A stretch of 64,000 nt of DNA from Methanobacteriota archaeon (GCA_963769885.1 CAVYNH010000006.1:320001-384000), one strand, 5' to 3'. Numbered from the stretch's first letter, positions 1-64,000 are shown. Numbers and translations: made by a program. The notes: generated by a model from the sequence alone, not told the origin.

Positions 1-34
1 CAACCATTCTTTCCCTAAAGAAAGGAGGAAAAAT

Positions 35-1018
35 ATGAAGAGACTGTTACTCATTGGAATCATAGCTAGTGTACTCCTCAGCCCACTCGCCTACGCCGCG
101 CCCCTATCCCCGCAATACTCACCAAGCATCGTTACCCATGCCCGGACGCCGGTCGCCGCCGACGGCAACGTCTCCATCTACGAAGACGCCCTCGACCAAT
201 CACAGACCGCGAACACCACCGGCTTCATCCCAGTCGGCAACTCCAGCTTCATGGGCTGGCTGAACATCTCCGTCGCCCAGTCGTTCATCCCCACCAAAGG
301 GATCCTGACCCGGGTACAATTCTACATGGCTAAGAACGCCACCGCCACTCAGCCCTGCTGCCTCGCCGTCCGCGACAACCTCACCGGCGCGGACCTCGCC
401 TACGCAACCCTCTCACCGCCTGCGTTCTCGACATATCCGAACTTCAGCTGGGTCGAATTCGACTTCTTCGACATCCCCGTCACCGTCAACACCACCTACT
501 ATATCGTCATCTACACTCAAGGCCTCGCGGACAACTACTACTTCGCCTCAGGCGGCGGCCACGACCCCTACCCCAACGGAGCCGCGTACTTCCGCTACAC
601 CGGTGTGAACTGGAGCGTCATCCCGCCAGGAGACGGCGACGCCGCCTTCAAGACGTACGGCCGCGACGCCCCCAGCTGGGCTACCGGGATGTACTCAGGC
701 TACTGGGGCCTCGCTCCCCTCGGCGTCCCCCTCCCGCCCGCCGGCTGGCTCACCGGGTTCTCCCGACAAAAGATCCTCTTCGGCTTCGACGGCATCTGGG
801 CCCCCTTCAACACCACCGTCCACAACGCGACCATGGCGCTCACCGGCGTCATCCTCGGCCCCTTCCTCCTCGGCGGCATCCACAACCTGACCACCGACAA
901 GGGAGCCTGGTGCATCGGCCTCGGCGGCATCAACGCCACCACCAGCGTCTTCTACTACCGCATCATGTTCTTCATCGGACCCAGCTTCTACCTCGCCGGC
1001 ATCTACTACGAACTCTAA
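35..1018 (+). CDS. Secreted hypothetical protein (beta-sandwich domain plus C-terminal Gly/aromatic module)
   Basis: GGAGG SD upstream; signal peptide MKRLLLIGII...AYA; C-rich codon usage. Confidence 0.8.
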   Translation: MKRLLLIGIIASVLLSPLAYAAPLSPQYSPSIVTHARTPVAADGNVSIYEDALDQSQTANTTGFIPVGNSSFMGWLNISVAQSFIPTKGILTRVQFYMAKNATATQPCCLAVRDNLTGADLAYATLSPPAFSTYPNFSWVEFDFFDIPVTVNTTYYIVIYTQGLADNYYFASGGGHDPYPNGAAYFRYTGVNWSVIPPGDGDAAFKTYGRDAPSWATGMYSGYWGLAPLGVPLPPAGWLTGFSRQKILFGFDGIWAPFNTTVHNATMALTGVILGPFLLGGIHNLTTDKGAWCIGLGGINATTSVFYYRIMFFIGPSFYLAGIYYEL

Positions 1019-1028
1019 CATCGTCTGT

Positions 1029-1066
1029 AAGGGAGCACCGCCCTCCCTTCCCCCCTCTTTTTTCTC
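1029..1066 (+). terminator. Hairpin plus pyrimidine/T tract terminator
   Basis: AAGGGAG...CTCCCTT stem followed by CTCTTTTTTCTC just after the stop codon. Confidence 0.55.
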
Positions 1067-1088
1067 TCACCCACGACGGAGCCCCGCG

Positions 1089-1117
1089 TTCGAACCTTTT
1101 CAAAAAAACTATTTAAT
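1089..1117 (+). promoter_or_regulatory. Repeated promoter motif, copy 1
   Basis: TTCGAACCTTTTCAAAAAAACTATTTAAT; near-identical copies at 1341 and 1494. Confidence 0.6.
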
Positions 1118-1137
1118 CCAAGAGCCAGAATAAAAAT

Positions 1138-1229
1138 AGGCATGGGAGGCAAGACAGGCCGACTCCGTTCTCCTCTTCTTCATGTCCTGGGAAACCCTTC
1201 ACATGCCCTGCCCTGCCTCCCATCTGCCT
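1138..1229 (+). ncRNA. Candidate hairpin sRNA, unit 1
   Basis: Starts about 21 nt after the TATA box; AGGCATGGGAGGCA pairs with TGCCTCCCATCTGCCT, or alternatively with CCTTCACATGCC; pyrimidine-rich loop. Confidence 0.4.
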
Positions 1230-1340
1230 CCATCACAATCCCACAACCCACTACCTCACGAGGTAACCAGCCAACGAGCGGAGGAGTCACCACCACCCCA
1301 CACGCCTGCCCCCCCGGCTCCTCCCCGCTCCCCCCACGCA

Positions 1341-1370
1341 TTCGAATCTTTTCAAAAAAAATATTTAAAT
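1341..1370 (+). promoter_or_regulatory. Repeated promoter motif, copy 2
   Basis: TTCGAATCTTTTCAAAAAAAATATTTAAAT. Confidence 0.6.
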
Positions 1371-1391
1371 CTACAACGCCTGATACAATTC

Positions 1392-1485
1392 AGGTATGGG
1401 AGGTAACCATGCGGGGCACACGCCTTGTATTCCCCTTCACCGCCTTGTGTCTTCATCATCCCCACACGGTACCCCATACCTTTTT
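1392..1485 (+). ncRNA. Candidate hairpin sRNA, unit 2
   Basis: AGGTATGGG...CCCATACCT closing stem, extended imperfect pairing, then TTTTT; starts about 22 nt after the TATA box. Confidence 0.45.
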
Positions 1486-1493
1486 CCGCCCTG

Positions 1494-1521
1494 TTCGAAG
1501 CTTTTCAAACAAACTATTAAA
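1494..1521 (+). promoter_or_regulatory. Repeated promoter motif, copy 3 (likely drives a leaderless mRNA for the 1547 gene)
   Basis: TTCGAAGCTTTTCAAACAAACTATTAAA about 25 nt before ATG 1547. Confidence 0.6.
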
Positions 1522-1546
1522 CACATCCAAAAATAAACCACGACCC

Positions 1547-4303
1547 ATGAAAACAATCCCCACACTCTTCATCCTCGCCCTCCTCCTCACAAGCCTTCTG
1601 CCCACCGCCACCGCCCGTAGCATCAGCCCGCCCCTCATCCTCGTCCAACGACAATCCGCCGCCGCCATCCGTACCACTGACACCATCCTCCTCTCCGCCC
1701 AAGCCAGCGACGACACCGCCCTTGATAAGGCCTACCTCTCCACCAACGAAACCGGCCACTGGCAGACCTATAGCTCCTGGTGGGACCCCCACTGGACCCA
1801 CGCCCTCAGACTCACCGTCGACCACACCACCATCCCCGCCAGCCTCACCGGCTTCCCCCTCCTCGTCATCCTCACCACCACCGACTTCGCTACGACCGCC
1901 CAGCCCGACGGCGACGACTTCCTCTTCACTGACGCCGCCAACACCACCCAATACCTCCACGAGATCGAGTCCTACGATCCCGCCACCGGAAGCCTCATCG
2001 CCTGGGTCCGCATCCCAACGCTCAGCGCCACCAAGGACACCACCCTCTTCCTCTACTACGGCAACCCAGACTGCCCAAGCCAACAAAGGCCTCGCGGCGT
2101 CTGGGCTGACTATCTCTCCGTGCTACATTTCACCGGCACCGCGGCCACCAGCCTCCACGACAGCGCATCCAACGAAACCCTGCTTTCCTACGGCGCACCC
2201 ATCTATGGTTGTCCCGGCAGGGTCGGTACGAGCATTGGTCTCAACACCAACGCCTCGGGCTCCTACCTCACGGCCCGCATCCATCTCCCGGCCAACTCCT
2301 CCTATACCCAAACAGTCTGGGTTTCTTTCGACGACACAGAATCCATAAGCGGCACCATCATCAACGGGAATGGCACCCAGGGGTTTCGCCTTCAGGTCAC
2401 GGAGACCGATCATGTCCGGAGCACGGCGATGACCGCGGCGGGAGTAAACAGCGTTCAGAGCACGACAGTCTTCGATCGATCCTCCCCAGTTTGGCGCGCT
2501 CTCTGTGGCCGTGTCAGCCTCCGAACCGGATGCCACGAGCTGTTTGTGGACGGCATCCGTGAGGCGGCTGGCGAGCTCCCGAGCTCAGTCCTCCCTGGGG
2601 TTGACGGCATCGTGTTCGGGGCGAACAGTAGCCATGCGGCGTTCCTGCACGGCCGCTTGGATGAGTTCCGCCTCTGTGCGAGAGACCTCAACGATTCCTG
2701 GATTAGGACGGAGGCCGCCATGATGCGATCTCCCGAGGCCTTCCTCCAGTGCAGCATGGTCCCGTCTCAGTGCATGGCCACGATCCATGGGTCTCCCCTT
2801 TGGCTTCATCAGAATTCGGACCCGCAATGGGCGAACTTCACCTGGGCAAGTCCTGGCGTCGTTCAAGGAACCATGGTAGGCTGGCGTATCATCTTCCAGG
2901 ATACCGGAGGATTTCAGAGCACGACCCCTGTCCTGAGCTTCCAGATCCTCGGTTCCCCGCCGAGTACTCCTTCGGCGCCGTCCGGCCCGAGTCGTACCAC
3001 GGTCGGCGTCCCGGCGTGCTTCTTGGTTCAGGCGGTTGATCCAGACGGTGACCCGGTTTCCTATGAGATGGACTACGGAGACGGCAGCGCTCTTGATTGG
3101 TCCACTGCATCAGCATCCGGAGCCGGTCAATGGATGACGCACGCATGGCGGCAAAGTGGCGAGTACCTTGTCAAAGTCCGGGCGAGGGATCCCTCCGGCG
3201 CAGAGTCGCCATGGTCTCCTCCCTCCTCGATCACCGTGTCCGGCTCAGGCTTGAGCTCACTGGCTATCCATGCCCCGACCGCGGTCACGGAAGGGGCTGA
3301 ATTCACGGTCACAGTAACCTGCGGCCTAGTTCCTGTTCCGGATGCAACGGTCCGCTTCGCATCGATGGTGCAGACGACGAACGGTACAGGCATTGTCAGG
3401 CTTTACGCTCCTGCCGCGAGCCGTGCGCAGAGTTTTTATCTTACGGCAGACCACCCGGAGTATGATGGGGCGATGATCACAGTTATCGTCGTCCGAACGG
3501 ACTCGGAGACTGAGTCTGGATGGATCTATGGCAGGGTCACGGGAGAAACGGGGGCGGGTCTTCCGAATGCCCAAATCACTGTCCAGGTGGATGGGACGAT
3601 GAACCATTGTGTCTTCACTGGTGAAACGGGTCGCTACACCATTCCACTGCGGGCTGGAGAGTACAGTCTTGTTGCGGACAAGCCTGGGTATGACTCGTTT
3701 TTGTTTCCAGGCGTGGTGGTGCAGCCTGGCCAGACGGTCGAGGTCAATCTGAGTCTTTCCCCGCATGCCGGCTCATCCTCAATAGAAACTTCTGATGAGA
3801 GTCTGGCGAAGGCGATCATTGATGCGGGGATCGCGGCGGATCGGATCGCGGGTCGGCTGGATGCATCGGATGGCTCGTGGGTGTTCTCGTCGTATCAGGA
3901 GGGGCTGTCGGCGTCGGTTGTCCATGGGTCGGCGTGGAACGTGTCGTTTACCGTGTCCGCGGTGAATCTGTCTGGGAGGGTCGTCGCGGTTCGGCTTGGG
4001 GATGCGGGGTCGGTGGATGGCGTGGATGTCCTGGTGGATGGGGTGTGGGTGGAGCAGGTGGATGTCGGTGAGGTGCTGTCGTTGGATGGGGGGGTTGCTC
4101 GGTTTGGGTGTATGAACGGGGAGGGGTCGGTGGTGTATTGTCTGGTGTATGTGCCGCAGTTCAGTAGTCATGTGGTGGAGGTGCGTGGGGTGGTGCGGGC
4201 GGTGTCGTTGGTGGGGTTGGCGGCGGTGTACGTGGGGGTGGGGGTGGTTGGGTTGGTTGGTGTTCTTCTTCCTATCGTTGCGATTGAGCGGAAGCGTCGG
4301 TGA
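1547..4303 (+). CDS. Surface protein: DUF2341, LamG-like, PKD and carboxypeptidase-regulatory-like domains, C-terminal TM anchor
   Basis: Signal peptide at ATG 1547; DUF2341 motifs (QPDGDDFLF, WVRIP, LYYGNP); GRLDEFR; DYGDG PKD; C-terminal TM plus RKRR. Confidence 0.8.
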   Translation: MKTIPTLFILALLLTSLLPTATARSISPPLILVQRQSAAAIRTTDTILLSAQASDDTALDKAYLSTNETGHWQTYSSWWDPHWTHALRLTVDHTTIPASLTGFPLLVILTTTDFATTAQPDGDDFLFTDAANTTQYLHEIESYDPATGSLIAWVRIPTLSATKDTTLFLYYGNPDCPSQQRPRGVWADYLSVLHFTGTAATSLHDSASNETLLSYGAPIYGCPGRVGTSIGLNTNASGSYLTARIHLPANSSYTQTVWVSFDDTESISGTIINGNGTQGFRLQVTETDHVRSTAMTAAGVNSVQSTTVFDRSSPVWRALCGRVSLRTGCHELFVDGIREAAGELPSSVLPGVDGIVFGANSSHAAFLHGRLDEFRLCARDLNDSWIRTEAAMMRSPEAFLQCSMVPSQCMATIHGSPLWLHQNSDPQWANFTWASPGVVQGTMVGWRIIFQDTGGFQSTTPVLSFQILGSPPSTPSAPSGPSRTTVGVPACFLVQAVDPDGDPVSYEMDYGDGSALDWSTASASGAGQWMTHAWRQSGEYLVKVRARDPSGAESPWSPPSSITVSGSGLSSLAIHAPTAVTEGAEFTVTVTCGLVPVPDATVRFASMVQTTNGTGIVRLYAPAASRAQSFYLTADHPEYDGAMITVIVVRTDSETESGWIYGRVTGETGAGLPNAQITVQVDGTMNHCVFTGETGRYTIPLRAGEYSLVADKPGYDSFLFPGVVVQPGQTVEVNLSLSPHAGSSSIETSDESLAKAIIDAGIAADRIAGRLDASDGSWVFSSYQEGLSASVVHGSAWNVSFTVSAVNLSGRVVAVRLGDAGSVDGVDVLVDGVWVEQVDVGEVLSLDGGVARFGCMNGEGSVVYCLVYVPQFSSHVVEVRGVVRAVSLVGLAAVYVGVGVVGLVGVLLPIVAIERKRR

Positions 4304-4349: not shown

Positions 4350-4613
4350 TTGATTGAGGGTGCGGTCGTGTTTTCGGTGATGACGGTGTTGTCGGTGGTG
4401 TTGTTTGCGGTGTCGGTGTTGAGTTTTGTGCGGTATCGGTCGGTGCGGATGTTGTTGATTAGTTTTATGCTTGGGTTGTTTGTGGTGCAGAGTGTGTTGT
4501 TGAGTCTGGGGTTGTTTTTTCCGGTGGTTGCTGGGTTTACGGGGAGTGTGTGGATGTGGGTGTTTGAGGTCGGGATTCTGGGTGTGTTGTATGTGACTGC
4601 GGTGAAGCCGTAG
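4350..4613 (+). CDS. Small 3-TM membrane protein
   Basis: Hydrophobic 87 aa ORF after a GGAGG SD; coupled to the HTH gene. Confidence 0.7.
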   Translation: MIEGAVVFSVMTVLSVVLFAVSVLSFVRYRSVRMLLISFMLGLFVVQSVLLSLGLFFPVVAGFTGSVWMWVFEVGILGVLYVTAVKP

Positions 4614-4622
4614 CGGGTTGTT

Positions 4623-5141
4623 ATGGCTGAGTTGTTTGAGTTGGAGACGCGGAAGCGGATTTTTCGGGTGATTGAGGAGCATCCGGGGTTGAATTTGAGT
4701 ACGATTGCGTCGATGTTGGGGATGAATGTGCCGTTGGTGGATTATCATACGCGGTATTTTGAGAAGCATGGGTTGGTGCTGGTGGCGAAGGATGGTGGGT
4801 TTAAGCGGTTTTATGTGAAGGGGGCGGTGGGGGTGGTGCATCGGCGGTTGTTTGGGGTGTTGCGGCAGGAGGTGCCGTTGCGGATTGTGTTGTTTTTGTT
4901 GAAGAATCCGGGGGCGCGGTATCCGCAGATTTGTGCGTGTTTTTCGTTTTCGAAGTCGACGGTGTCGTATCATTTGCGGAAGTTGATTCGGTGTGGGGTG
5001 GTGTGTGTGTCGGTGGAGGGGGAGGGGTGGGTGTATTCGGTGTTGGATGAGAAGGTGGTGGTGGGTTTTTTGCTGCAGTATAAGCCGAGTGGGGTGTTGC
5101 AGCGGTTCAAGGAGACGTGGGAGGAGTTCGGGCTGCCGTAA
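4623..5141 (+). CDS. Tandem winged-helix (ArsR-like) transcriptional regulator
   Basis: Two repeats: RKRIF..HPGL..YH and LRIVLFLLKNPG..STVSYHLRKL. Confidence 0.85.
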   Translation: MAELFELETRKRIFRVIEEHPGLNLSTIASMLGMNVPLVDYHTRYFEKHGLVLVAKDGGFKRFYVKGAVGVVHRRLFGVLRQEVPLRIVLFLLKNPGARYPQICACFSFSKSTVSYHLRKLIRCGVVCVSVEGEGWVYSVLDEKVVVGFLLQYKPSGVLQRFKETWEEFGLP

Positions 5142-7401: not shown

Positions 7402-7500
7402 AAGGAGTCTCCGTCTGGGGGTAAACCCGGAGGACCTTTTTAATTGTTTCTTCCTCTGATTCTAAGAGAAAAAACAGGGAAAAAGGAAGTGAAAGATGAT

Positions 7501-8619
7501 TTACACGGCTTCCACGTGCGTCTGCGCCCATTCCTTCGGCACGAACGGCGGCTTGACGACTTTTGCTGCGACCGGCTTGTCCCGCACCATGATCGACAGC
7601 ATCGTCCCCGGCTCACGCAGATCCTGGCGGACGTAGCCCATGGCGATGCCGGTGTTCAGGCACGGTGACAATGTCCCGCTTGTGACGACGCCGACCTTCG
7701 TATTCCCGGAGCGAATCTCGCAGCCGTGCCGCGGGATGCCCTTCTCAGTGCACTCCAGGCACGTCATCCGGTCGAATTTTCCATTGGCCTTCTGCGCCAG
7801 CAGCGCCTCCTTGCCGATGAACGGGTGCTCCCAGAAGACTGTCCAGCCTAAGGTGGCCTCCAGTGGCGTATGCCCGCCGGCGAACTCGTTGCCCGCCAGC
7901 ATGAACGCCTTCTCCAACCGCAGCGTATCCCGCGCACCCAGACCGACCGGCAGAATCCCGTACTCCTTACCCGCATCTAGGATTGCGGTGAAGACCCGCT
8001 CCGCACTCGAATTGGGCGTGATTTGTAATTCGAAGCCAAGCTCCCCGGTGTACCCCGTATGCGACAGGATGCATTCGACGCCGGCGACCTTCGTCGTCGT
8101 GCAGCCGAAGAACTTCACCGACGCCAGGTTCACCTCCGTCACTTTCTGCAGCGCCTCCTGCGACCGCGGCCCCTGCACCGCCAAAATAACGTAATCCCGA
8201 GAGACGTCCTTCACATCAGCCTTCAGGTTATGCGCCTTGGCCTGTTTCTGCAGCCACTCCGTCACAATCGCATTCATCCCCGCATTCGGAACCATCATGT
8301 ACCGATCCCCAAGATGCATGAAGATCGTGTCATCAATGATCGTCCCATCCTCACGCAGGATTTCGGTATACTGGCTGCGCTGATCCGCAATCCGCGCCGC
8401 ATCCTCAACAGTACAAAGAGAGATCAGCTTCTCTGCATCCCTCCCCGTGATCCACACGTTGCTCATATGCGACACGTCGAACAACCCGACGCGGCGGCGC
8501 ACCGCCAGATGTTCATCAAGAATCGACGAATACTGAATCGGCATCTCAAAGCCCACGAACTCCGTAAACCGCGCGCCGAGACGCACCTGCACCAGATACA
8601 AAGGCGACCGAATAGCCAT
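7501..8619 (-). CDS. gcvT: Glycine cleavage system T protein (aminomethyltransferase)
   Basis: GLFDVSHM, TGYTGELGFE, GLGARDTLRLE. Confidence 0.97.
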   Translation of the reverse strand: MAIRSPLYLVQVRLGARFTEFVGFEMPIQYSSILDEHLAVRRRVGLFDVSHMSNVWITGRDAEKLISLCTVEDAARIADQRSQYTEILREDGTIIDDTIFMHLGDRYMMVPNAGMNAIVTEWLQKQAKAHNLKADVKDVSRDYVILAVQGPRSQEALQKVTEVNLASVKFFGCTTTKVAGVECILSHTGYTGELGFELQITPNSSAERVFTAILDAGKEYGILPVGLGARDTLRLEKAFMLAGNEFAGGHTPLEATLGWTVFWEHPFIGKEALLAQKANGKFDRMTCLECTEKGIPRHGCEIRSGNTKVGVVTSGTLSPCLNTGIAMGYVRQDLREPGTMLSIMVRDKPVAAKVVKPPFVPKEWAQTHVEAV

Positions 8620-8713
8620 AATCTGAGACGCTCCCAGGGACCCATGAATACCAAAACCCTAGTTAACCATTTCGACAAACCCTTAAAACGCCAAGACCTT
8701 CCCTACATCCACC

Positions 8714-9376
8714 ATGCAGCCGACCCCGTACCCCGGCATCTACCGCCGCGCCGACAAGCTCTTCACCATCAACCCACCAGCCTGCCGCGGCACCCTCGTC
8801 TACACCGAACACCTCGTCACCGACGACGACACCGAATACCGCTCCTGGAACCCCTACCGCAGCAAACTCGCCGCCGCCCTCCTCAACAAACTCCCTGTCA
8901 CCATCCCCACCGACACCCCCATCCTCTACCTCGGCGCCGCCACCGGCACCACCGTCAGCCACATCGCCGACATCGACACAGGAGGCCTCGTCTACGCCGT
9001 CGAATGCGCGCCCCTCGCCATGGCCAAACTCCTCACCGTCGCCGAAAAACGCCAAAACATCATCCCGATTCTCGCCGACGCCAACCACCCGGACCGCTAC
9101 GCCGCCATCGTCCCACCCGTCAGCCTCGTCTACCAAGACATCGCCCAGCGCAACCAAGCAGAGATCTTCCTAACTAACTTAGACCGCTACCTCATCCCCG
9201 CAGGTCTCGGGATTCTGATGGTAAAAGCCCGCAGCATCGACGTCGCCATCCCGCCAAAACAGGCGTACGCCCAGGTCGCCGACAGCCTGCAACAAGGAGG
9301 CTATCGGGTAGAAAAAACCATGGACCTCGCCCCCTATGACAAGGACCATGCGGTGCTCGTCGTCCATCGCGGCTAA
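8714..9376 (+). CDS. flpA: Fibrillarin-like rRNA/tRNA 2'-O-methyltransferase
   Basis: YRSWNPYRSKLAAA, LYLGAATGTTVSH, YQDIAQRNQ. Confidence 0.96.
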   Translation: MQPTPYPGIYRRADKLFTINPPACRGTLVYTEHLVTDDDTEYRSWNPYRSKLAAALLNKLPVTIPTDTPILYLGAATGTTVSHIADIDTGGLVYAVECAPLAMAKLLTVAEKRQNIIPILADANHPDRYAAIVPPVSLVYQDIAQRNQAEIFLTNLDRYLIPAGLGILMVKARSIDVAIPPKQAYAQVADSLQQGGYRVEKTMDLAPYDKDHAVLVVHRG

Positions 9377-24415: not shown

Positions 24416-24421
24416 GGGGGT

Positions 24422-53043: not shown

Positions 53044-53076
53044 TGCTTGACTGAAGAGAGAAGCAAAGTCTTCTTT

Positions 53077-53970: not shown

Positions 53971-54118
53971 GGCCTCTTCCCTGGTGATAATAAGGCCGTT
54001 CTTCTATAAATATGTATATTTGCCTCTAATTTATATATCCAGAAGTCCCGGTCTTATAGGAACAGGGTCGTAACTTTGATATAAATGATATGCATTAGCA
54101 ATACATGGGGGAAGCGAT

Positions 54119-54728
54119 ATGAAAAGAGCTGCAGGAATCATTGTTTGTATACTGTTGATTCCAACGTTTTTACCGATCTCGGCAATGGCTGGAGACGCGG
54201 CACACCCTGAGATCTCGGATGGGACGGGGGACGCACGAAAAAGCGCCGATATCCAGAAAGCCTGGTTCTCTGAAGACCCGGCAACCCCCGAGTTCCTCTA
54301 CGTGACCATCCAATTTGTGGAACTCAATCCAGACTATCGAGGGACTATCATCAACGGCGTCTTTTGGACGATGAACCACGAGAACTATATCGCGTACGGC
54401 CGGATTGGAACGTACCTGGGCGAGAATTATTTTTGGGCGGGTCTTGCAGGAACGAATACGGGGAGCATGGTGAACGGATCTCTAAACATGACAAACGGAA
54501 CGATCACCTATACAATCCCGAAGTCAGTCATTGGAAGCCCACACACAGGAGACATCCTGAACAGAACCCTTGGCGCAACAGGTACAGCGCACCCCGCTTC
54601 TGGAACAATTGAATTGGAATCCATTTTTCAGAGACGTCTTGTTCAAAATACTTGGATTAAAAAAATTGATCTTGCAAGATTACGCACCAGACAAAGGACT
54701 AGGAAACGACTACACCATTCTGTATTAA
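54119..54728 (+). pseudogene. Secreted hypothetical protein with frameshift near 54568
   Basis: Frame-0 tail looks spurious; the shifted frame gives LAQQVQR...DYAPDKGLGNDYTILY-stop(54728). Confidence 0.6.
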
Positions 54729-54857
54729 AACCAGACACATCGCAGCATCGGCCTCCTCTCTTTTTTCACACTAACAGTAAACAGGTGAATAGAGATTCTT
54801 AATAACGAGAAAGACCGAAAAGACACTTGTTGAGGGGTTTGTAGGTTTGCTGTTTGA

Positions 54858-55286
54858 TTAATAATTCTTCTTTGTCGCGCTTTTCCCCAAATGTCGCGTC
54901 GTCATCTCGAGGTACTCCTTCGCCGTCCCAACCCAGAAATCATCCGCGGACTTCGACGACTGGCTCCGGATGAACTCACGGGTAGCTATGGCCTTGAAAT
55001 CCCGGTCATACGTAATAATCCCGCAGACCTCCGGGTTCTCCAACGCCGCCTGCACCAGCAACAAATCAGCCAAGGACGGCCGCTTACGGTCATCCGTCCA
55101 CAACTCACGCAGCCCCGGCGAGATCTCCTTCACCATATAGACCATGATCCGCGGCTCGACCGACGCCCGGACCTCCTCCAGCACCTGCTTGGTCACCGCG
55201 ATTTTCGCCACCAGAAGCACCCGCTCGCAGTCCCGCCCACGCACCGGATTCTTATTCCTCGCGTACAGCAAAATATTCGCATCCAC
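54858..55286 (-). CDS. PIN domain protein, duplicate lacking the zinc ribbon
   Basis: VDANILL..VLEEV..SLAD..TYDRDF. Confidence 0.65.
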   Translation of the reverse strand: MDANILLYARNKNPVRGRDCERVLLVAKIAVTKQVLEEVRASVEPRIMVYMVKEISPGLRELWTDDRKRPSLADLLLVQAALENPEVCGIITYDRDFKAIATREFIRSQSSKSADDFWVGTAKEYLEMTTRHLGKSATKKNY

Positions 55287-55292
55287 CAGGTA
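54901..55292. repeat. Direct repeat copy A (about 392 bp)
   Basis: Ungapped match to 56761-57152 at offset 1860; about 31 mismatches by manual count. Confidence 0.95.
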
Positions 55293-55302
55293 AAGGGGGA
55301 AT

Positions 55303-55394
55303 TACCGAAATCTACCAAAATCTACAAAATCGGTAGAAACATTTATAAGAACTCACGACCTACCAATATCTACCGAAATCTACGAAATTGGTAG
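55303..55394 (+). promoter_or_regulatory. Two 34-bp repeat-built operator-like elements flanking the Fic TATA box
   Basis: TACCGAAATCTACCAAAATCTACAAAATCGGTAG and TACCAATATCTACCGAAATCTACGAAATTGGTAG around TTTATAA. Confidence 0.7.
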
Positions 55395-55399
55395 TTCCC

Positions 55400-56707
55400 A
55401 TGAAAATTCCTGAAAAACCAAAGGAGTACAAAGAAATCTTCAAAGAATCCTACGAAGAAATTTCAAAACACTTCCATGACAAGAAAATTCTTGAATTCCT
55501 CGCCAAATGCAATCAGCCTTATCTCCACTGGGATCAACTTCGCTATAAACCGACACCACAGAACCTCCCACCAGAGCTTATCTGGGCCATGTTAAAAATC
55601 ATCCGAGAAAGCCAATATAAGAACCTGAGATTCTCCTCGTGGCATTTCCGCTATATCCTCCTGGATGATTTCCAGAAAAAACTCCATATCCTCGACAAAG
55701 GAACCGCAGGGATCTTGGGAACAAACTTCGAATCAATCAACTCCTACGTCCGCGAACGCTACATCATCAGTTCCCTCATGGAAGAGGCGATCGCCTCAAG
55801 CCAACTCGAAGGGGCAGCAACCACACGAACCATCGCCAAAGAGCTGCTCAGGAAAAAGAAAAAACCGAGAAACTACTCGGAACAAATGATTGTCAACGGG
55901 TACAGCACTCTGCAGAAGATAGTCGCAGCCAAGACCCACACGATTACACCTGACTTCATCCTCGATCTCCATAAGAGCATCACGGAGAGCACCTTGAAGG
56001 ACAGGTCACACGAAGGAAGGTTTCGGGACAACAACGAAGTGGTCGTAGCCGACCCTTTTGAAATCGACAAAGTATTCTATAAACCTCCTGATTTCAAACA
56101 GATCCCTGCACTCATCGAAGAATTCTGTCAGTTCGCCAACAACGACACCGAGGAGTTCATCCATCCTATCATCAAGGGAGTCCTTCTTCACTTCCTGATC
56201 GCCTATATCCATCCCTTCGAGGATGGCAACGGCAGGGCCGCTCGGACGATTTTCTATTGGTATGTCCTCAGCCACGGCTATTGGCTCTTCGAATTCATGG
56301 CCATCTCCAGAATCCTTCTCCGATCGAAGGTGAACTACGGACTGTCATATTTGTATACCGAGACTGACGACAATGATATGACATATTTCATCGACTTTAA
56401 CCTAAAGGCAATCCAAGAAGCAGTCGAAGACATGAATGCATACCTGAAGAGGAAACAAGAAGAACAGACAGAGATTCTCAACCTCATTAAGCAGTATAAA
56501 AATCTGAACCTCCGACAAGCCGAAATATTAAAGGAATTCGTCAAAGACCCTGAAAAAATCCATGACGTCAAAGAGATTATGACGACCTATGGCATCGCGT
56601 ACGACACGGCAAGAAACAACCTCCTCCACTTAACGAAACTCAGATTCTTGGAAAAAACGCGGATGCAAAAGAAATTCCTCTTCAAACTCTCACCAAAGAA
56701 AAGATAG
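55400..56707 (+). CDS. Fic family protein (class II type) with C-terminal HTH
   Basis: SSQLEG inhibitory motif; HPFEDGNGRAAR; low GC. Confidence 0.94.
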   Translation: MKIPEKPKEYKEIFKESYEEISKHFHDKKILEFLAKCNQPYLHWDQLRYKPTPQNLPPELIWAMLKIIRESQYKNLRFSSWHFRYILLDDFQKKLHILDKGTAGILGTNFESINSYVRERYIISSLMEEAIASSQLEGAATTRTIAKELLRKKKKPRNYSEQMIVNGYSTLQKIVAAKTHTITPDFILDLHKSITESTLKDRSHEGRFRDNNEVVVADPFEIDKVFYKPPDFKQIPALIEEFCQFANNDTEEFIHPIIKGVLLHFLIAYIHPFEDGNGRAARTIFYWYVLSHGYWLFEFMAISRILLRSKVNYGLSYLYTETDDNDMTYFIDFNLKAIQEAVEDMNAYLKRKQEEQTEILNLIKQYKNLNLRQAEILKEFVKDPEKIHDVKEIMTTYGIAYDTARNNLLHLTKLRFLEKTRMQKKFLFKLSPKKR

Positions 56708-56732
56708 GCAAGATCAATCATGAGGCCAATGA

Positions 56733-57269
56733 TCACTTCGCCCTTCTCTGATTCTTCTGCGTCTTCTCCAGGTACTCCTTCGCCGTCCCAACCCAGAAAT
56801 CATCCGCGGACTTCGACGACTGGCTCCGGATGAACCCCCGCGTCGCAATCGCCTTGAAATCCCGGTCGTACATAATGATCCCGCAGATCTCCGGGTTCTC
56901 CAGCGCCGCCTGCACCAGCGACAAGTCCGCCAGCGACGGCTGCTTACGGTCATCCGTCCACAGCTCACGCAGACTCGGGGAAATCTCCTTCACCGTATAG
57001 ACCATGATCCGCGGCTCGACCGACGCCCGGACCTCCTCCAGCACCTGCTTGGTCACCGCAACCGGTGCCACCAGAAGCACCCGCTCGCAGTCCCGCCCAC
57101 GCACCGGATTCTTATTCCTCGCGTACAGCAAAATATTCGCATCCACCAGGTACCGCTTCTCCCGACGCGCAAGCCGCATGTACACCAGCTCACGGCCGCA
57201 CACGCAGTGCACGTTGCGCGACTTCGGCAGCCGCAGCCGCCGCTTACACCCCGGGCACGTCACCTTCAT
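56733..57269 (-). CDS. Zinc ribbon plus PIN domain protein
   Basis: CPGC..CVCG, then YLVDANILL..LEEV..SLAD..YDRDF. Confidence 0.8.
   Translation of the reverse strand: MKVTCPGCKRRLRLPKSRNVHCVCGRELVYMRLARREKRYLVDANILLYARNKNPVRGRDCERVLLVAPVAVTKQVLEEVRASVEPRIMVYTVKEISPSLRELWTDDRKQPSLADLSLVQAALENPEICGIIMYDRDFKAIATRGFIRSQSSKSADDFWVGTAKEYLEKTQKNQRRAK
56761..57152. repeat. Direct repeat copy B
   Basis: Matches 54901-55292. Confidence 0.95.
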
Positions 57270-58023: not shown

Positions 58024-60359
58024 TTAGGAGGCAGTAACCCAGATGAGGAGGGCGAAGCCGGACCCGGTCTTTTGAGCAGTGGTGTTGTCGTCGGCGGTCG
58101 CGGCGACGGTGATGCTGAGGGCTCCGAGGCCGATGATGGGGCGGTCCGTGATGGTCGTGCTGTTGCCGGGGTCGAGGACTGCGATGGTACCGTTGGCGTG
58201 GGGGCCGATGAGGATGAATCCTCCGGTGAGGTTGATGGTCCAGGTGATGTTGGTGAGGGGGGTAGTGCCGTTGTTGGTGAGGGTGGTGCTGAGGCTGAGG
58301 AAGCCGCCTTTGAGGGCGCCGATGAGGAGGCTGCCGGGGGTGGTGCCTTGGGTGACGGTGGCGGTGGCGACGGCGGGCAGGCAGTTCTGGGCGGTGGCGG
58401 TGACGGTGAGGGTGCCGGGGGTGGCGGGGTCCGGGGTGAAGGTGGCGGTGCCGGTGCCGTCGGTGGTGGCGGTGAGGTAGACGTCCGGGTTTTTCCAGAG
58501 GCAGACGGTGACGTCGGCCTTGGGGCTGTCGCCGCTGGTGACGGTGACGGTGAAGGTGCTGGGGCCGGTTTGGAGGCTGGTGGGGGCGGTGATGGCGAGG
58601 GGCTGCGGGGTGGCAAGCCAGATGGGCAGCTCCGGGTCGCCGAGCAGGGTGAGTTCGCTGTAGATGTATTGGTCGTACTCGTCGCCGGTGTTGATGTAGC
58701 TGTCTTTGTGGTCGGAGAACGCAGCTCCGAGGTGGTAGAGGTTGTTGCTCATGAGGCTGTGGAAGAAGGATTGGTCGTAGCCCATGCTGAGGGTGTTGTA
58801 GCTTTGGGATTGGTACCAGCCGTAGCGGCTGTTGCCGATGAAGGCGAGGCTGCCGCCGTTGGGGTTTTGGAGGAAGTGTTCAGCGATGCAGTCGTTTTCG
58901 TCGAAGGCGGCGGGGTCGCAGCCCATGCTGTAGAGGGTGCCTTGTTTATTGCCGTTGGTGAGGGCGTCGACGTCGGCGATGTCGAGGAGGAGGTTGTGGT
59001 GGGTGTAGCCCATGCCCATGACGTCGGTGTTGGAGTGGTCGGCGTGGTTTATGATGTTCTGGCCGGCGTTCATGGCGGCGATGGCGTTGGTGAGGTGGTT
59101 GCCGGTCTGGCTGTCGTAGACGGTGGTGACGGTCCAGCCGGTGGTGAAGTGGGCGTTGACGATGGCGATCTTGCATTGTTCTGCTTTGGTGCGGCTGTCG
59201 AGGTCGAAGCCGAACATGGCGGCGGTGGTGGTGAAGGCGGGCGGGTTCTGTTCGTAGGTGAGGAGTTTGGTGATGAAGGTGCCGATCTGTCCGGCGCCGG
59301 TGCCGGGTCCGCTGACGCTGGCTCTGCCGACGTTGAGTTCGCTGATCCAGTCGTTGTCGAAGTCGGCGTAGTAGGCGTCGTTGGGGACGGGGTCTGAGTC
59401 GGGGGGATTGATGGTTCTCATGTTGGTGGGGATGGTGTCGATGTCGCCGCCGAGGAGGATGTAGCTGGCGCCCCAGGTGGCGTACGCGTCTTGGACGAAG
59501 GCGCGGATCTTGCTGATGTCGGTGCTGCCGCTGTAGCTGCTGAGGACCCAGTCGGTGGTGACGATGGTGGCGGGGACGCCTTTCTGGGTCTTCCAGTCGG
59601 CGAGGGGCTGGAAGGCGCTGACCCAGTCGGCGCGGGTGATGATGACGTAGTCGTAGTCGCCGGTGGGGACGACGCTGTGGTGCGGGAAGGGAGAGGTTTG
59701 GAGATGGACGTCAGTAGGGTTGATGACGAGGGCTTCGGTGCGATCTATGAGTTGTTGGGTGGTCTGGGGGGTGGCGTGGTCGGAGAGGTAGTCGCTGCAG
59801 GGGCGTGGGGTGGTGTGGATGGTGATAATGATCTGGGTGGTGAGGGTGAGGGTGCCGGTGGCGGGGGTGTAGTGGATGGGGGTGATGGCGATTGTTGTGA
59901 TGGGCTGGCCGGCGAGGTCACCGGTGCTTTGGATGGTGGCAGTGGTCGCGGGGTAGGGGGTGGTCTGCTGGTAGATGGCGGGGTCTGGTGGGATGAGGGA
60001 GGCGGGGGTGTCGAGGGTCTGTGGGTTGGCGGGGATGATGGTGTAGGTGCCGGGGATGGGCTGTTCTGTGGTGGTGATGGTGAGGCTGGTGGCGGTGGTG
60101 TCGGCGGGGAGGGCGACGTGGATGGTCTGGGTGGGGAGTTGGGGTGCGCCGGGGGTGGTGAGGCTGGGGTAGGGGCTAGTGATGAGGGTGCAGCCGTCAA
60201 TGGTATCGAGTTTGAAGTCAGCGGGGTTGTAGGTGAGGGCGACCGTGACGGTGTCCGTCGTGGTCGCATGCGTTCGGGTCGCGGTGATGGGGAGGAGAAG
60301 GCAGCCTGTAATGAGAAGGATGGTTAGCGTCTTCGCTATCGTGGTGGTGATGGTTTCAT
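58024..60359 (-). CDS. Gingipain-like C25 cysteine peptidase with propeptide; 1-nt frameshift right after the ATG
   Basis: Frame open from 60375 to 58024; signal peptide, PGAPQLP propeptide, YILLGGD, NHADH, YSMGC, LLGDPEL. Confidence 0.85.
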
Positions 60360-60501: not shown

Positions 60502-61764
60502 TTAGGTTCCGGCGATGGCGAGGAGGGCGACGGGGGCCTGGTGGGTGGTGAGTGTGAGAAGGGCGGCGACGGCGGCGGGGCTGGTGGGAGTGGCGAGACA
60601 GGTCTGCAGGCCGAGGCTGGTGGCCTGCAGCATCGTGGTGTGGAGGGCGGCGCCGGCTTCGAGGAACCAGAACTGGGTGTAGTTCTGTTCGCCGTGGGTC
60701 TTGGCGGTGTCGAGGACGGCGACGAGGGTGAGGGGCGCGCTGGCGATGCCGGGCTGGTCGGTGGCGGCGGCGAGTTCGGCGCGGTGGTCGCCGTCGGCGA
60801 TGGGGATGAGGCGGGCGAGGATGGGGAGACCGATGCGGTCGACGGGTTTGCCGAATGCTTTGAGGAGGCTGGGCTGGTAGCGGGTGACGGCGGTGGGGGT
60901 GACGGCGTAGTAGTCGAGGGGGTATTCGCCTTTGGCGCTGGGGGTGGTGCGGTGGCGTTGGATGGTGTTGAGGTCTTGGTGGCTGCGGTCGAGGTAGGGG
61001 GAGAAGCCGTCGGTGGCCCAGATGAGCTGGTCGATCTGGGGTTGGGTGAGGGTACCGGAGAGGTTCGTGGTCTCTGTGCGGGCGGTGAGGGCGGCGGTGA
61101 GGTTCATCGTGTGCTGGGTTGGCGGCTGCATGCGGCTGATCCACATGGGGTGGTTTTTGAAGTGGTAGGGCTGGAGGGGGTGGCCGATGGGGTAGACGAT
61201 GAGGCCTCGTTGGTCTGGGGGGATGCTGAGGTTGTTGATGGCTGGTGGGAGGCCGCCGGTGACGACGCCGCTGAGGTTGAGGGCGTCGAGGGTGAAGGCG
61301 ATGTTCTGGCAGATCTGGCCGATCTCCAGGCCGCCTTCGTTGCTGTTGGCTTGGGTGGTGTTGTAGCAGAAGCCGAGGACGAGGGTGGCAGTTTGGTATT
61401 GGTAGCCGACGATGGTGCGCCAGTCGCCGGGTTTGTACATGATGAGGCTGTGATTCGCTGGTGCATAGGTGTAGGCGGCGTCGGGGAGGAGGACGTAGAG
61501 GACGGTGGAGTAGGTGCCGTTGTGGCCGGGGTTGGTGCGGCTGCCGTCGGGGCGCTGGCCCATGGCGTCGTAGAGGATGGTGGAGAGCTCAGTGTCGGTG
61601 ATGGTCTGGTTCGTGAACACGCGGATGCTCATGCGCTCGAAGATCGTCTTCTCCAACGTCGTGGGGATGGATTGTGGTGGGGGGAGGCTGCGGGCGGTGG
61701 CGAGGCACGTGAGGGCGAGGCAGCCAAGGATGATGACGACGCTAACACAAAGGATTTTTTTCAT
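60502..61764 (-). CDS. Secreted tandem nitroreductase/SagB-like protein
   Basis: Signal peptide; RMSIRVF; RTTPSA..YPL; LEAGAA. Confidence 0.82.
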   Translation of the reverse strand: MKKILCVSVVIILGCLALTCLATARSLPPPQSIPTTLEKTIFERMSIRVFTNQTITDTELSTILYDAMGQRPDGSRTNPGHNGTYSTVLYVLLPDAAYTYAPANHSLIMYKPGDWRTIVGYQYQTATLVLGFCYNTTQANSNEGGLEIGQICQNIAFTLDALNLSGVVTGGLPPAINNLSIPPDQRGLIVYPIGHPLQPYHFKNHPMWISRMQPPTQHTMNLTAALTARTETTNLSGTLTQPQIDQLIWATDGFSPYLDRSHQDLNTIQRHRTTPSAKGEYPLDYYAVTPTAVTRYQPSLLKAFGKPVDRIGLPILARLIPIADGDHRAELAAATDQPGIASAPLTLVAVLDTAKTHGEQNYTQFWFLEAGAALHTTMLQATSLGLQTCLATPTSPAAVAALLTLTTHQAPVALLAIAGT

Positions 61765-61860
61765 GCTCAAGAGTTCTCCTTTTTCTAGGGAGTGGAAGGC
61801 GTGTTTTCAGATATAAAACTTCGCGTGGCTCCCGGCTTTGGAAATAGTTGGCGCATGTGG

Positions 61861-62112
61861 TTACTTGATTTTTCCGCAGGTGGGGCAGGTGGCGTCGTCG
61901 GGGAGGTCGGCGCCGCAGGTCGGGCAGGACTGGACCAGGGGTTTGTTCTGTGGTCTCCTTTTGCTTGGAAGGGCGAGGCCGAGGATGGCGAGGAGGAAAC
62001 CGATGATTCGGAGGGGCCAGGGTAGGACGTTTCCTAATTCGAGTGGGAAGTAGAGGAAGAAGGAGCCGATGAAAAATATCACTAAGCCGGTGATGATGAG
62101 CGGTACCCTCAT
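61861..62112 (-). CDS. Small membrane protein with zinc ribbon
   Basis: 2 TM segments plus CPTCG..CPTCG. Confidence 0.78.
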   Translation of the reverse strand: MRVPLIITGLVIFFIGSFFLYFPLELGNVLPWPLRIIGFLLAILGLALPSKRRPQNKPLVQSCPTCGADLPDDATCPTCGKIK

Positions 62113-62323
62113 ACGATGTGCCTTGGGGGTGGTAGACCTTCTCGCTTAATAAATATCGTCCTCGCCGTGGCCTCCCTCCATTCGAATGTGTTCCTCCGCT
62201 AGGGAATCATAAGGCAAGTCGAGGAGGCAATGCTATAGAAAACATCTTAACGAGGGGACGTGAAATCATTTTGTCAAACTCAAAGCATCCAAACCTCATA
62301 GAAAGGGCGTTACCATCGGACTC

Positions 62324-63532
62324 TTAGGTCGCCTCATCCGTGGTCTTACTGAGGTACAGTCGCTTCTTCTTCTCAACCTCAGCATACTTCATGAGCTTGG
62401 CGACGAGCTCCGGATCCCATGCTCTTTCGGCAAGGATCTTAGCAAGCACGGTTGTGTCGAGTTGGCTGACTGCCGCAAGCTTCCCCGCTTTGGCCAACAA
62501 TGCCTCGAGCTTGGCGCGCTCCGGGCTGCCTTTCCCCGGGAACGCGATCTTCTCCGACTCTGTGATCCGCACCTTGTTCTTCTCGCCGAACACGCAGCTG
62601 ACCTTCTCTTTTTCCGCGAACGCGAGCAACGCCGCCTCCAGCGTCTCGATCTGCGCGTCCCACTCCGCGTTCATCTGCTTCTGCACCGTCTTCAGCTCCG
62701 CGTACTTGTTCACCAGCTGCACGCCGCTGTCCGTCTGGTACCCCGTGGGGTCCTCCTTAACCTTGTAGAGGTGCGACCACTGCCCGCACAGCGACTTGAA
62801 CTCGCACCAGTCACAGAGGAACGACGGCCGCGCCGAGAACCGCTCCTCCCGCTCGATCACATCGATGAGCACCCGCGTCTGATCCTTCAGCGCCTGCAGC
62901 TGCGCCTCCGTCCGCGTCGAATCCATCTCCTTATCGAACGCCAGAAAATGCCAGATCAACCGCACGTCCCGCGCGTCCGGATACCGGTCCTTGACCCCGA
63001 TCATGTACAACGCGAGCTGCCGGTCCTCATGCAAATACTGTGCCAGCGGCAATCGAGAATTCGTCTTGTAGTCATGGATCTCGTACCGCCCGTCCCCCGC
63101 CTCCGCGAGCCGGTCGATGAACCCGGTCAGCCGATACGCCCCCGACCCATCCAGGTCGATCGTGATGTTCTCCTCCAGCGCGATCGTCTTCTCCCGCGTG
63201 AACGGCGCATACCGCCGATAGTAATCCGCGAGGTACTTCTCGGCCATCCGCCGGTAATTCTCAGCCGAGTACTCCGTCCGGACGATGACGACGTCCGTGC
63301 TCCAGTTCTTCGTCCACTCCTCGCGTAGAAACCCGAGGATCTCGTCAAGGGAGCTCTGCTTCTGATGCATCAGATCCCGGTACAGCTTCTCCAGCGCCTC
63401 ATGCACCCGCGTCCCCAGGAACGCCTCCACGGTCTCCGCCACCATCGGCTCCACCTTTTCCACATACTGGTACTTGAACTTCTGCGGACACTGCTCAAAA
63501 CAGCTCAGCCGAGAGTGAGAATAGACCGTCAT
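62324..63532 (-). CDS. PD-(D/E)XK nuclease (RecB/AddB-like, with Fe-S Cys)
   Basis: SHSRL..CP, GTRVH, GFIDR, IHDYKT, QLALY, CDWC..C. Confidence 0.92.
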   Translation of the reverse strand: MTVYSHSRLSCFEQCPQKFKYQYVEKVEPMVAETVEAFLGTRVHEALEKLYRDLMHQKQSSLDEILGFLREEWTKNWSTDVVIVRTEYSAENYRRMAEKYLADYYRRYAPFTREKTIALEENITIDLDGSGAYRLTGFIDRLAEAGDGRYEIHDYKTNSRLPLAQYLHEDRQLALYMIGVKDRYPDARDVRLIWHFLAFDKEMDSTRTEAQLQALKDQTRVLIDVIEREERFSARPSFLCDWCEFKSLCGQWSHLYKVKEDPTGYQTDSGVQLVNKYAELKTVQKQMNAEWDAQIETLEAALLAFAEKEKVSCVFGEKNKVRITESEKIAFPGKGSPERAKLEALLAKAGKLAAVSQLDTTVLAKILAERAWDPELVAKLMKYAEVEKKKRLYLSKTTDEAT

Positions 63533-63703
63533 CCACCCCAGGGATAACCAGGAACAGGATTTAACCTTACGGAACCCACCACACCGCAACACACCCCACG
63601 GCCCCCCTCAAAACCGCGTTTCCCCCCGCGATTTCTTATAAAATTATAAATACTAAATCCCATATTTTTATCCACGCTTACCACTAGGGGCGAGGTTAAC
63701 ACC

Positions 63704-64000
63704 ATGAAGAAGACCATCCTCTCACTACTAATATGTACACTGCTGATCACCCCGATCGGTGTCATCTGCACCATCGCCGCACCAACCACACCCGCGCACC
63801 AGCCCCCAGGGCCGGCCTACGCACCACCGCTCACCTACATCGACACCTCCACGCCAACACCGGATCATCCAACGCTCCCCAGCAGCGGCGTCAACCCCCT
63901 CATCATCAACGTTCTCCAACAGGTTACCCCAGACTACTACCTCAGCTACCTCCAGACCCTCGTCAACTTCGGACCCCGCGTCACCGGCACCACCGCCTGC
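63704..64000 (+). CDS. Secreted M28-like peptidase (partial, runs off the window)
   Basis: MKKTIL signal; YLQTLVNFGPRVTGT resembles M28 N-termini. Confidence 0.65.
   Translation, partial: MKKTILSLLICTLLITPIGVICTIAAPTTPAHQPPGPAYAPPLTYIDTSTPTPDHPTLPSSGVNPLIINVLQQVTPDYYLSYLQTLVNFGPRVTGTTAC

Follow-up and report, generated by a model that had tools for sequence, protein, structure and literature searches.

A mosaic of kilobase-scale strand polarity domains in the genome of a Methanobacteriota archaeon

The genome of a Methanobacteriota archaeon (GCA_963769885.1) is a mosaic of polarity half-domains, in which weakly constrained sites are driven to C and A on one physical strand and to G and T on the complement. 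We examined this pattern in a stretch of 64,000 nucleotides (CAVYNH010000006.1, positions 320001-384000 of contig C6; hereafter the window) and across the genome, which is a metagenome-type assembly of 2.09 Mb in 7 contigs (55% GC, 92% complete). The window contains archaeal genes, among them those for TFB and fibrillarin, which mark the source as an archaeon. The relatives of its HypD protein all come from Thermoplasmatota metagenome-assembled genomes recovered from sediments and wetlands, and parts of the stretch are present in wetland and freshwater-sediment metagenomes. Below, strands, blocks, and gene coding strands that are rich in C and A are denoted M and those rich in G and T are denoted K, and the GC and AT skews at third codon positions are denoted GCsk3 and ATsk3. 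The plus strand of the window alternates between M and K domains, with 8 transitions from K to M and as many gradual returns. The best explanation of this pattern is DNA synthesis directed outward from fixed sites, and we give this account, which is inferred from equilibrium composition only, roughly an even chance of being correct.

The skew is strong and extends over the whole genome. Within the window, the GC skew of 1-kb segments ranges from -0.46 to +0.61 for a binomial standard deviation of ~0.04, an amplitude of ~10 times binomial noise. The local counts reported in a first-pass annotation of the window are exact: positions 4981-5040 contain 34 G and 3 C, and positions 14401-14460 contain 31 C and 7 G. 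Genome-wide, the absolute GC skew per kb has a median of 0.17 and a 90th percentile of 0.39, and GC skew is anticorrelated with AT skew (r=-0.78), which indicates that the axis of variation opposes G+T to C+A. Using hysteresis thresholds, we counted 171 K-to-M transitions. Their spacing has a median of 10.5 kb and extends from 4.6 to 19 kb between the 10th and 90th percentiles, in agreement with the 5-20 kb that had been proposed from the window. The autocorrelation of the skew is lowest at 5-6 kb and shows a weak maximum at 13-14 kb, and the half-domains are typically 3-7 kb in length. At a larger scale, we did not observe any replichore skew: every 40-kb bin of three contigs fell within ±0.07 GC skew. 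A large-scale replichore signal was also sought around the two cdc6 genes and was not seen. Whereas a skew of the replichore type changes sign only at the origin and at the terminus, 171 sign changes were found here.

Reverse complementation does not alter a profile that climbs gradually and then drops sharply, and a sawtooth can therefore be tested without knowing the strands. The sharp drops and gradual returns initially described for the window are a feature of the whole genome: 500-bp increments have a skewness of -0.36±0.05, and drops below -0.3 (78) are three times as frequent as rises above +0.3 (26). A stricter test (600-bp arms and a threshold of 0.5) left 19 drops but only 2 rises; of these drops, 15 are located at divergent junctions. 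The sign of the increment skewness is reversed at 2 kb because rises take 2-4 kb. Polarity flips from G/T to C/A within 0.5 kb or less at some of the intergenic regions that bear promoters, chiefly divergent ones, and the return is spread over 2-5 kb, often inside genes. One gradual return from C/A to G/T is contained in the long surface-protein gene at 1142-4303, where GCsk3 climbs smoothly from -0.84 to +0.82 and where codon positions 1 and 2 also shift along the protein.

The skew is concentrated at third codon positions and is also found at synonymous and intergenic sites. Four-fold degenerate sites of the 314 most C-ending genes present a composition of approximately C 0.80, A 0.10, G 0.06, and T 0.04 (values for Ala GCN; other families are similar). 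The 110 most G-ending genes present the complement (G 0.78, T 0.09, C 0.08, A 0.05), and the G/T-ending class is the complement of the C/A-ending class in all codon families. In two-fold families, Y-ending codons of the C/A class are 93% C, mirrored by R-ending codons that are 92% G in the G/T class, and R-ending codons of the C/A class are 76% A, mirrored by Y-ending codons that are ~74% T. Amino-acid usage follows polarity as well: Thr, His, Ile, Asn, and Pro are associated with C/A-coded genes (9.9% Thr, 3.5% His, and 7.8% Ile genome-wide) and Val, Gly, Arg, and Glu with G/T-coded genes (10.9% Val, 8.7% Gly, and 7.3% Arg). Intergenic DNA located within blocks has the same polarity as its surroundings, with a GC skew of ±0.27 that correlates with that of the flanking genes (r=0.73), and divergent intergenes that do not flip are also polarized (+0.38 and -0.34). 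The exact complementarity of the codon classes, together with the skew of intergenic DNA, points to mutational bias rather than codon selection. The pressure is a strand-symmetric one that acts at the nucleotide level (mutation or biased repair) and is not a selection linked to tRNAs or mRNAs. By our arithmetic, the C/T ratio at Y sites of the M strand is ~13 and the A/G ratio at R sites is ~3, against ~2 and 0.45 in unskewed genes. A single asymmetry factor of ~6.5 would explain both types of two-fold sites if fixation of A->G and C->T changes is that much more frequent on the K strand than on the M strand. Neighboring bases have no strong influence within the codon families, which argues against a motif-specific deaminase.

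We then classed the junctions between neighboring genes by their flanking 200 codons. The 47 K-to-M flips identified at junctions are distributed among 37 divergent, 9 tandem, and 1 convergent junctions. The process had been suggested to act from fixed sites; the sites are indeed conserved in a congener, but they are not anonymous, since 37 of the 47 lie in divergent promoter regions. The 228 divergent junctions include 37 M/M, 1 K/K, and 102 K/M cases, and the 231 convergent junctions include 13 M/M, 3 K/K, and 110 K/M cases. At the flips, the strand running outward from 5' to 3' is C/A-rich on both sides, and the strand with its 3' end toward the flip is K. The component of the skew that is independent of gene orientation is ~-0.40 within 2 kb of sharp flips and falls to zero by ~5 kb, although the value for the first kilobase is partly circular because these sites were selected by their drop. 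Intergenes that carry flips are longer (225 vs 137 bp) and richer in A-tracts, the sequence GAAAAA being found in 23 of 37 against 13 of 65. One of these flips, again from G/T to C/A, occupies the 402-bp gap upstream of one of the two orc1/cdc6 genes, a place where an origin could be anticipated. A NucS/EndoMS gene was observed directly downstream of one orc1/cdc6 gene (C6:259505-262032 of this genome). Several hallmarks of multi-origin-type skew are found in this genome: the jumps are abrupt, fixed, and intergenic, the returns are gradual, and the skew is independent of gene sense and extends to intergenic DNA.

The larger part of the skew is regional and tied to the physical strand, and it is not set by coding sense. 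Gene strand accounts for 28% of the variance of plus-strand GCsk3 across the genome. Coding GCsk3 of neighboring genes is positively correlated for tandem pairs (+0.66) and negatively correlated for convergent (-0.50) and divergent pairs (-0.52), and the residuals remain correlated across opposite-strand neighbors (0.49) once the effect of strand is removed. The sense strand is nevertheless C-rich in 72% of the genes, with a mean coding GCsk3 of ~-0.28 (from tandem-pair means) and an orientation slope of -0.27. The earlier statement that the pattern is not a coding-strand bias is thus supported by validated genes of both orientations with both skews, but it was too absolute in view of this 72% and of the 28% of variance. 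The genes that had been named in its support are as described: the coding strand is G/T-rich for purQ, the genes at 4350-5141, hypD, tmk, and the nuclease gene, and C-rich for the stress operon and the C25 gene. G/T-rich sense strands are carried by genes with strong Pfam matches (HypD 2e-135, gcvT 4e-81, M18 3e-81, purQ 2e-61, DUF362 4e-54, UbiA 8e-42, PD-(D/E)XK 1e-35, and tmk 5e-31). Across 317 long genes, a significant 5' to 3' rise in skew was detected in 108 and a fall in 27. A ribosomal-protein cluster on contig C4, in which all genes are on the plus strand, displays two successive ramps: the first leads from L3 (-0.79) to L24 (+0.24), and the second follows a reset at S8 (-0.56) and L6 (-0.67) and reaches S5 (+0.09), L30 (+0.39), and S2 (+0.35). 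These G/T-coded ribosomal-protein genes indicate that a G/T-rich sense strand is not simply a mark of weak expression. The co-orientation of 72% of the genes represents a smaller gene-orientation term in this genus, which may simply reflect genes that point away from promoter-sited flips.

Polarity is conserved among relatives. The closest relative (L001) is syntenic with the window over 18.5-37.5 kb (19 kb) and has kept the 25.6-kb flip, with the skew passing from +0.41 to -0.37. In a congener represented by 211 kb (G001), we identified 112 orthologues whose coding GCsk3 correlates with that of this genome (r=0.78), and the sign is the same in 59 of 59 strongly skewed pairs. The median amino-acid identity of these orthologues is 79% and their synonymous sites are presumably saturated. 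That polarity has been kept despite this presumed saturation implies that a local determinant keeps re-imposing it. The chirality of the sawtooth is -0.49±0.16 in this congener and -0.71±0.26 in another skewed genus (G014, 45% GC); it was not seen in ten unskewed relatives (+0.11±0.12). In G014, the correlations between neighbors are +0.57, -0.55, and -0.53 with no preference for the sense strand (mean +0.08, standard deviation 0.46), and its polarity map resembles that of the present genome only weakly (r=0.20). Within the family, the trait has a patchy distribution, and skewed members have a GC content of 0.39-0.57 against 0.28-0.37 in most unskewed members. Our screen of candidate genes for repair and replication yielded no family that distinguishes skewed genomes from unskewed ones. 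This genome and the skewed congener both encode NucS, EndoV, and UDG. Genes for an RNase HI-like protein, RNase HII, and two family-B polymerases (PolB) are present as well, and the second PolB was found in 40 of 41 relatives. We detected histone-fold genes (PF00808) in only 3 of 41 sampled genomes of the class; they were not found in the other 38, whether skewed or not, or in this genome. One conserved family-B polymerase homologue of 956 aa matches in two pieces to open frames of 1160-1460 aa in several relatives (G002, G006, G014, G015, G017, and G023). This suggests that these frames carry an intein-like insertion near residue 630; the copy of this genome is uninterrupted.

Outward-directed synthesis would account for these observations as follows. 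DNA synthesis would start repeatedly at the flips and run outward in both directions, such that the outward-running strand would be newly copied and the inward-running strand would be kept as the template. Deamination-type changes (A->G and C->T) on the kept strand would be fixed, and the same lesions on the replaced strand would be erased. Tracts ending at variable distances would generate the gradual returns. This synthesis could take two forms. In the first, breaks or nicks in open promoter DNA would be resected from 5' to 3' and refilled, or would undergo long-patch or recombination-associated synthesis; in the second, replication forks would depart from many initiation sites. We lean slightly toward the first form, which is independent of chromosome replication and therefore compatible with the missing replichore skew. 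The second form has the matching sign, since the leading strand of yeasts is A+C-rich and the gap upstream of the cdc6 gene flips with that sign. The first-pass annotation had proposed a strand-asymmetric process of mutation, repair, or replication acting in both directions: its strand-asymmetric and bidirectional character is borne out by the nucleotide-level and regional nature of the skew, by the changes of polarity inside genes, by the conserved flips, and by the C/A-rich outward strand on both sides, and its attribution to repair or replication is a matter of interpretation. A more specific version, namely a eukaryote-like multi-replicon organization or a promoter-primed resynthesis running outward from ~170 fixed, promoter-linked sites ~10 kb apart instead of one or two Orc1/Cdc6 origins, with a nascent outward strand rich in A+C as in yeasts, seems to us possible but improbable.

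Several observations weigh against outward-directed synthesis. The genes for UDG, EndoV, NucS, and RNase H are all present, and we found no repair defect that would explain the strength of the skew. Only two Orc1/Cdc6 genes were found, and forks departing from many sites would require ~170 very efficient origins. The motif search at the flips returned A-tracts only and no specific shared motif, which weakens the version with many origins. The lack of replichore-scale skew implies that ordinary replication leaves little trace in this genome, and a replicative cause is therefore harder to accept. In addition, the four-fold sites of the C/A-rich strand present a strong excess of pyrimidines (C+T 0.84) that goes beyond deamination or transitions alone. 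Finally, the location of the flips at promoters and the co-orientation of 72% of the genes would equally suit a cause linked to transcription.

Such a cause would be transcription-associated mutagenesis, in which strong and often divergent promoters produce a C/A-rich sense strand whose bias fades and reverses toward 3' ends, while read-through and antisense transcription act on neighboring genes. The 37 of 47 flips found at divergent promoters, the 72% of genes with a C/A-rich sense strand, and the excess of long genes with a 5' to 3' rise (108 against 27) are in line with this scenario. It also has a precedent of the same shape in fungal genes, whose coding strands favor C toward the 5' end and G toward the 3' end, with four-fold sites, flanks, and amino-acid usage affected (PMC3315797). 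A trend of this kind prevails among the long genes of the present genome, and four-fold sites, flanks, and amino-acid usage are affected here as well. Unlike in fungi, however, the pattern does not belong to single genes, since polarity extends over convergent as well as divergent junctions; the amplitude is also far greater, and nearly half of the first-in-unit genes at divergent junctions start G/T-rich. Indeed, one first-in-unit gene is G/T-rich over its first 200 codons at 102 of 228 divergent junctions, polarity continues across 110 of 231 convergent junctions, and it runs through 59 non-flipping divergent intergenes, which neither flanking gene should transcribe. A skew of transcriptional origin is expected to follow the transcribed strand and to be confined to transcribed DNA; instead, gene strand explains 28% of the variance, opposite-strand neighbors are anticorrelated, and divergent intergenes are polarized. 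Dominant antisense or read-through transcription would be needed over ~28% of the genes, including those encoding ribosomal proteins, and the highly expressed genes of L24, L30, and S2 are G/T-coded. Furthermore, G014 presents an equally strong skew and the same pattern among neighbors without any sense-strand preference. The classical sign of transcription, as seen in E. coli and mammals, is a G+T-rich coding strand. Coding strands are C-rich on average in this genome, which is opposite to the sign of classical non-template-strand deamination. Overall, we consider transcription-associated mutagenesis unlikely.

The remaining alternatives are weaker. A relic of rearrangement, in which a very strong ancestral replichore skew was scrambled by many small inversions, would produce blocks of alternating sign with edges at gene boundaries, and some sharp rises do exist. 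But inversions do not predict smooth gradients inside intact genes, and they predict sharp drops and sharp rises equally, whereas drops outnumber rises threefold and occur at different junction types. Since the net skew of each 40-kb bin is ~0, no replichore-scale skew is present that inversions could have scrambled. Together with the polarity kept in presumably saturated orthologues and the 19 kb of synteny with L001, these results make the inversion scenario very improbable. Selection on codon usage or on mRNA properties, favoring C/A-ending codons or unstructured C/A-rich mRNAs, would fit the C/A-ending majority of genes, including the stress operon and the genes of fibrillarin and TFB. Selection on codons should be specific to families or tRNAs and absent from non-coding DNA; instead, the codon classes are exact complements in every family and intergenic DNA is skewed too. 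Ribosomal-protein genes are found in both classes, opposite-strand neighbors are anticorrelated, and gradients exist inside genes, such that selection appears slightly less credible still. An artefact of assembly, binning, or sequencing (chimeric joins at the switches or strand-specific damage) could be suspected from a 7-contig metagenome-type assembly, but it is hardly conceivable given that contigs from other wetland runs, which represent strains of ~93% identity, bridge the flips at 25.6 and 31.0 kb (the latter with contigs of 12.8 and 9 kb), that the same pattern is found in independently assembled relatives from other studies, and that the genes are intact with strong Pfam matches. More than 1,100 differences separate the contigs of related strains from the stretch. 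Even taken together, selection, inversions, and artefact are a small share of the possibilities; what these, outward-directed synthesis, and transcription leave over goes to some other process.

A search of the literature available to us yielded no description of kilobase-scale skew domains in archaea, whose strand asymmetries are generally regarded as weak and as following either gene sense or a set of one to four origins. Skew domains are known from other systems. The effect is small in yeasts, and mammalian N-domains are of megabase scale. In vertebrate mitochondria, A->G and C->T changes are in excess on the strand left single-stranded and are graded with exposure time. The present genome resembles these mitochondria in its G/T and A/C strands at synonymous sites, its inferred A->G plus C->T spectrum, and its grading with distance from a start site; unlike these single small replicons, it has ~170 domains in a 2-Mb chromosome and both transition types are apparently shifted by the same factor. 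It shares a compositional strand asymmetry at neutral sites with the GC skew of bacterial and archaeal replichores, but it lacks a signal at that scale and the sign of its flips is opposite to the bacterial rule of a G-rich leading strand. GRINS, attributed to Nivina et al. 2021, are reportedly repeats of intense nucleotide skew inside polyketide and non-ribosomal peptide synthetase genes; the GC and AT skews are likewise locally intense here, but they concern ordinary housekeeping genes genome-wide. In the yeasts S. cerevisiae, K. lactis, and C. albicans, skew jumps mark origins and the leading strand is A+C-rich (PMC3459929). As in these yeasts, the jump sites are fixed and intergenic in our genome, the outward strand is A/C-rich, third positions and intergenes are both affected, and the return is diffuse. 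Unlike in yeasts, the skew is near saturation (GCsk3 up to ±0.97) and there are only two Orc1/Cdc6 genes. The same source summarizes the upward jumps of the (G-C)/(G+C)+(T-A)/(T+A) skew at the origins of mammalian N-domains (PMC3459929), with which our domains share a sawtooth of abrupt fixed jumps and gradual returns that is independent of genes and also intergenic. They differ in their opposite sign, their size of ~10 kb, and their amplitude, which is far smaller in mammals. Overall, the pattern resembles yeast and mammalian skew domains in its shape and vertebrate mitochondria in its spectrum and gradient, and none of these systems matches it in scale, amplitude, or host.

The features of the window are listed in Table 1. 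All the switches that had been proposed are present: three are strong (13.9, 25.6, and 31.0 kb), two are moderate (7.4 and 62.2 kb), and one is weak (43.4 kb). An additional switch was found near 18.5-18.8 kb. The genes flanking the 13.9-kb flip have coding GCsk3 values of -0.66 and -0.67, and coding GCsk3 at the 7.4-kb flip is +0.30 upstream and -0.54 downstream. The oxidative-stress operon forms the plateau to the left of the 25.6-kb flip, and the coding strand of its ferritin gene (minus strand) reaches a GCsk3 of -0.75 and an ATsk3 of +0.94. At the other extreme, the two helix-turn-helix (HTH) genes have GCsk3 values of +0.94 and +0.97 and ATsk3 values of -1.00 and -0.95, the second value of each pair being that of the gene at 4623-5141. 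The 58-bp gap between FUR and the DUF3147 gene (25543-25600) contains a near-perfect palindrome, TTGTAATGATTACAA, which is a plausible candidate for a Fur-type operator of the oxidative-stress operon (21293-25542). The region 43290-43667 is the most AT-rich spot of the window and contains many short A/T-rich direct and inverted repeats. Islands of low GC content (0.39-0.49) at 5.6-7.0, 10.3-11.2, and 52-57 kb are weakly skewed and interrupt the domains. The largest of them (52-57 kb) contains a Fic/DOC-family gene and several open reading frames (ORFs) without Pfam matches. The islands were probably acquired recently and have yet to take on the skew; weak skew would be expected in that case.

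Table 1. Flips and genes of the window. Delta is the change in (G+T)-(A+C) skew measured with 600-bp arms.
Feature	Position	Strand	Details
Surface-protein gene, 1053 aa	1142-4303	+	DUF2341, LamG, PKD, and CarboxypepD_reg; Pfam domains along the whole frame
Two small HTH regulator genes	4350-5141	+	Near-pure G/T codon endings; Pfam HTH_5 3e-12
Moderate flip, tandem junction	7402-7500		gcvT / gcvH (both -); delta -0.25 at 7455
Sharp G/T-to-C/A flip, divergent intergenic	13756-14095		Hypothetical gene (-) / radical SAM gene (+); change-point 13939; delta -0.59
M18 aminopeptidase gene across a gradual return	15984-17348	-	Coding GCsk3 +0.07 (5' end) to +0.40/+0.30 (3' end)
Moderate flip among co-oriented (-) genes	18511-18916		Delta -0.28 at 18511
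Oxidative-stress operon	21293-25542	-	Rubrerythrins, ferritin, FprA-like, flavin reductase-rubredoxin, FUR; C/A-rich coding strand
Sharp flip, 58-bp divergent gap	25543-25600		FUR (-) / DUF3147 gene (+); delta -0.54
hypD (26472-27551) and small upstream gene	26472-27784	-	HypD 2e-135; coding GCsk3 +0.49, +0.19; G/T-rich coding strand; anti-oriented in C/A-rich (+) block
purQ-like amidotransferase gene	28326-29453	+	GATase_5 2e-61; coding GCsk3 +0.23; anti-oriented in G/T-rich (+) block
Sharp flip, divergent gap	30809-31081		PKD-domain gene (-) / PAF-AH-like hydrolase gene (+); delta -0.38 at 30977
tmk, hypothetical gene, UbiA prenyltransferase gene	33132-35320	-	Pfam; coding GCsk3 +0.73, +0.83, +0.31; anti-oriented in C/A-rich (+) block
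Weak flip, 378-bp divergent intergenic region	43290-43667		26% GC; delta -0.19
Low-GC island, weak skew, interrupts domain	52000-57000		GC 0.42-0.49; Fic/DOC gene 55388-56707
Peptidase C25 gene, C/A-rich coding strand	58024-59421	-	Pfam 2.9e-34; coding GCsk3 -0.81; within the 57.5-62 kb G/T-rich (+) block
Moderate flip upstream of the 61861-62112 (-) gene	62047-62323		Delta -0.30
PD-(D/E)XK nuclease gene, G/T-rich coding strand	62324-63592	-	Pfam 1.4e-35; coding GCsk3 +0.36; right of the 62.2-kb flip

Gene calling is itself affected by the skew. A first gene finder, based on a self-trained single-class Markov model, covered 66% of the genome and missed many genes of the window. Because a single model missed so many genes in skewed DNA, the calls of the window were anchored and checked by Pfam, and a replacement caller was built that relies on G+C periodicity only and is blind to G versus C, followed by a three-class model. 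This second caller recovered all Pfam-validated genes of the window except one overlapping gene. Stop codons are depleted on the C/A-rich strand and, as a consequence, long false ORFs appear there. Such shadow ORFs, of 370-505 aa, were found antisense to Pfam-validated genes at 23555-25072 (+), 58072-59397 (+), 60541-61788 (+), 8059-9177 (+), and 31178-32332 (-); they had no Pfam matches where these were searched. Shadow ORFs and compositional heterogeneity constitute an annotation hazard for this lineage.

Our results indicate that near-saturating polarity domains at the 10-kb scale rewrite codon choice and even amino-acid composition in an archaeal lineage. The underlying cause is a strong DNA transaction, anchored at sites and running in one direction, of which we found no description in archaea; repair or recombination tracts, many replication starts, and an unusual process linked to transcription are the candidates. 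The compositional heterogeneity that it leaves may mislead binning, codon-based proxies of expression, and phylogenetics for this group. The skew also provides, from sequence only, a map of where the process starts and how far it reaches in organisms that cannot so far be cultured. If ~170 start sites truly exist, it would constitute a ready-made map of these sites in uncultured organisms.

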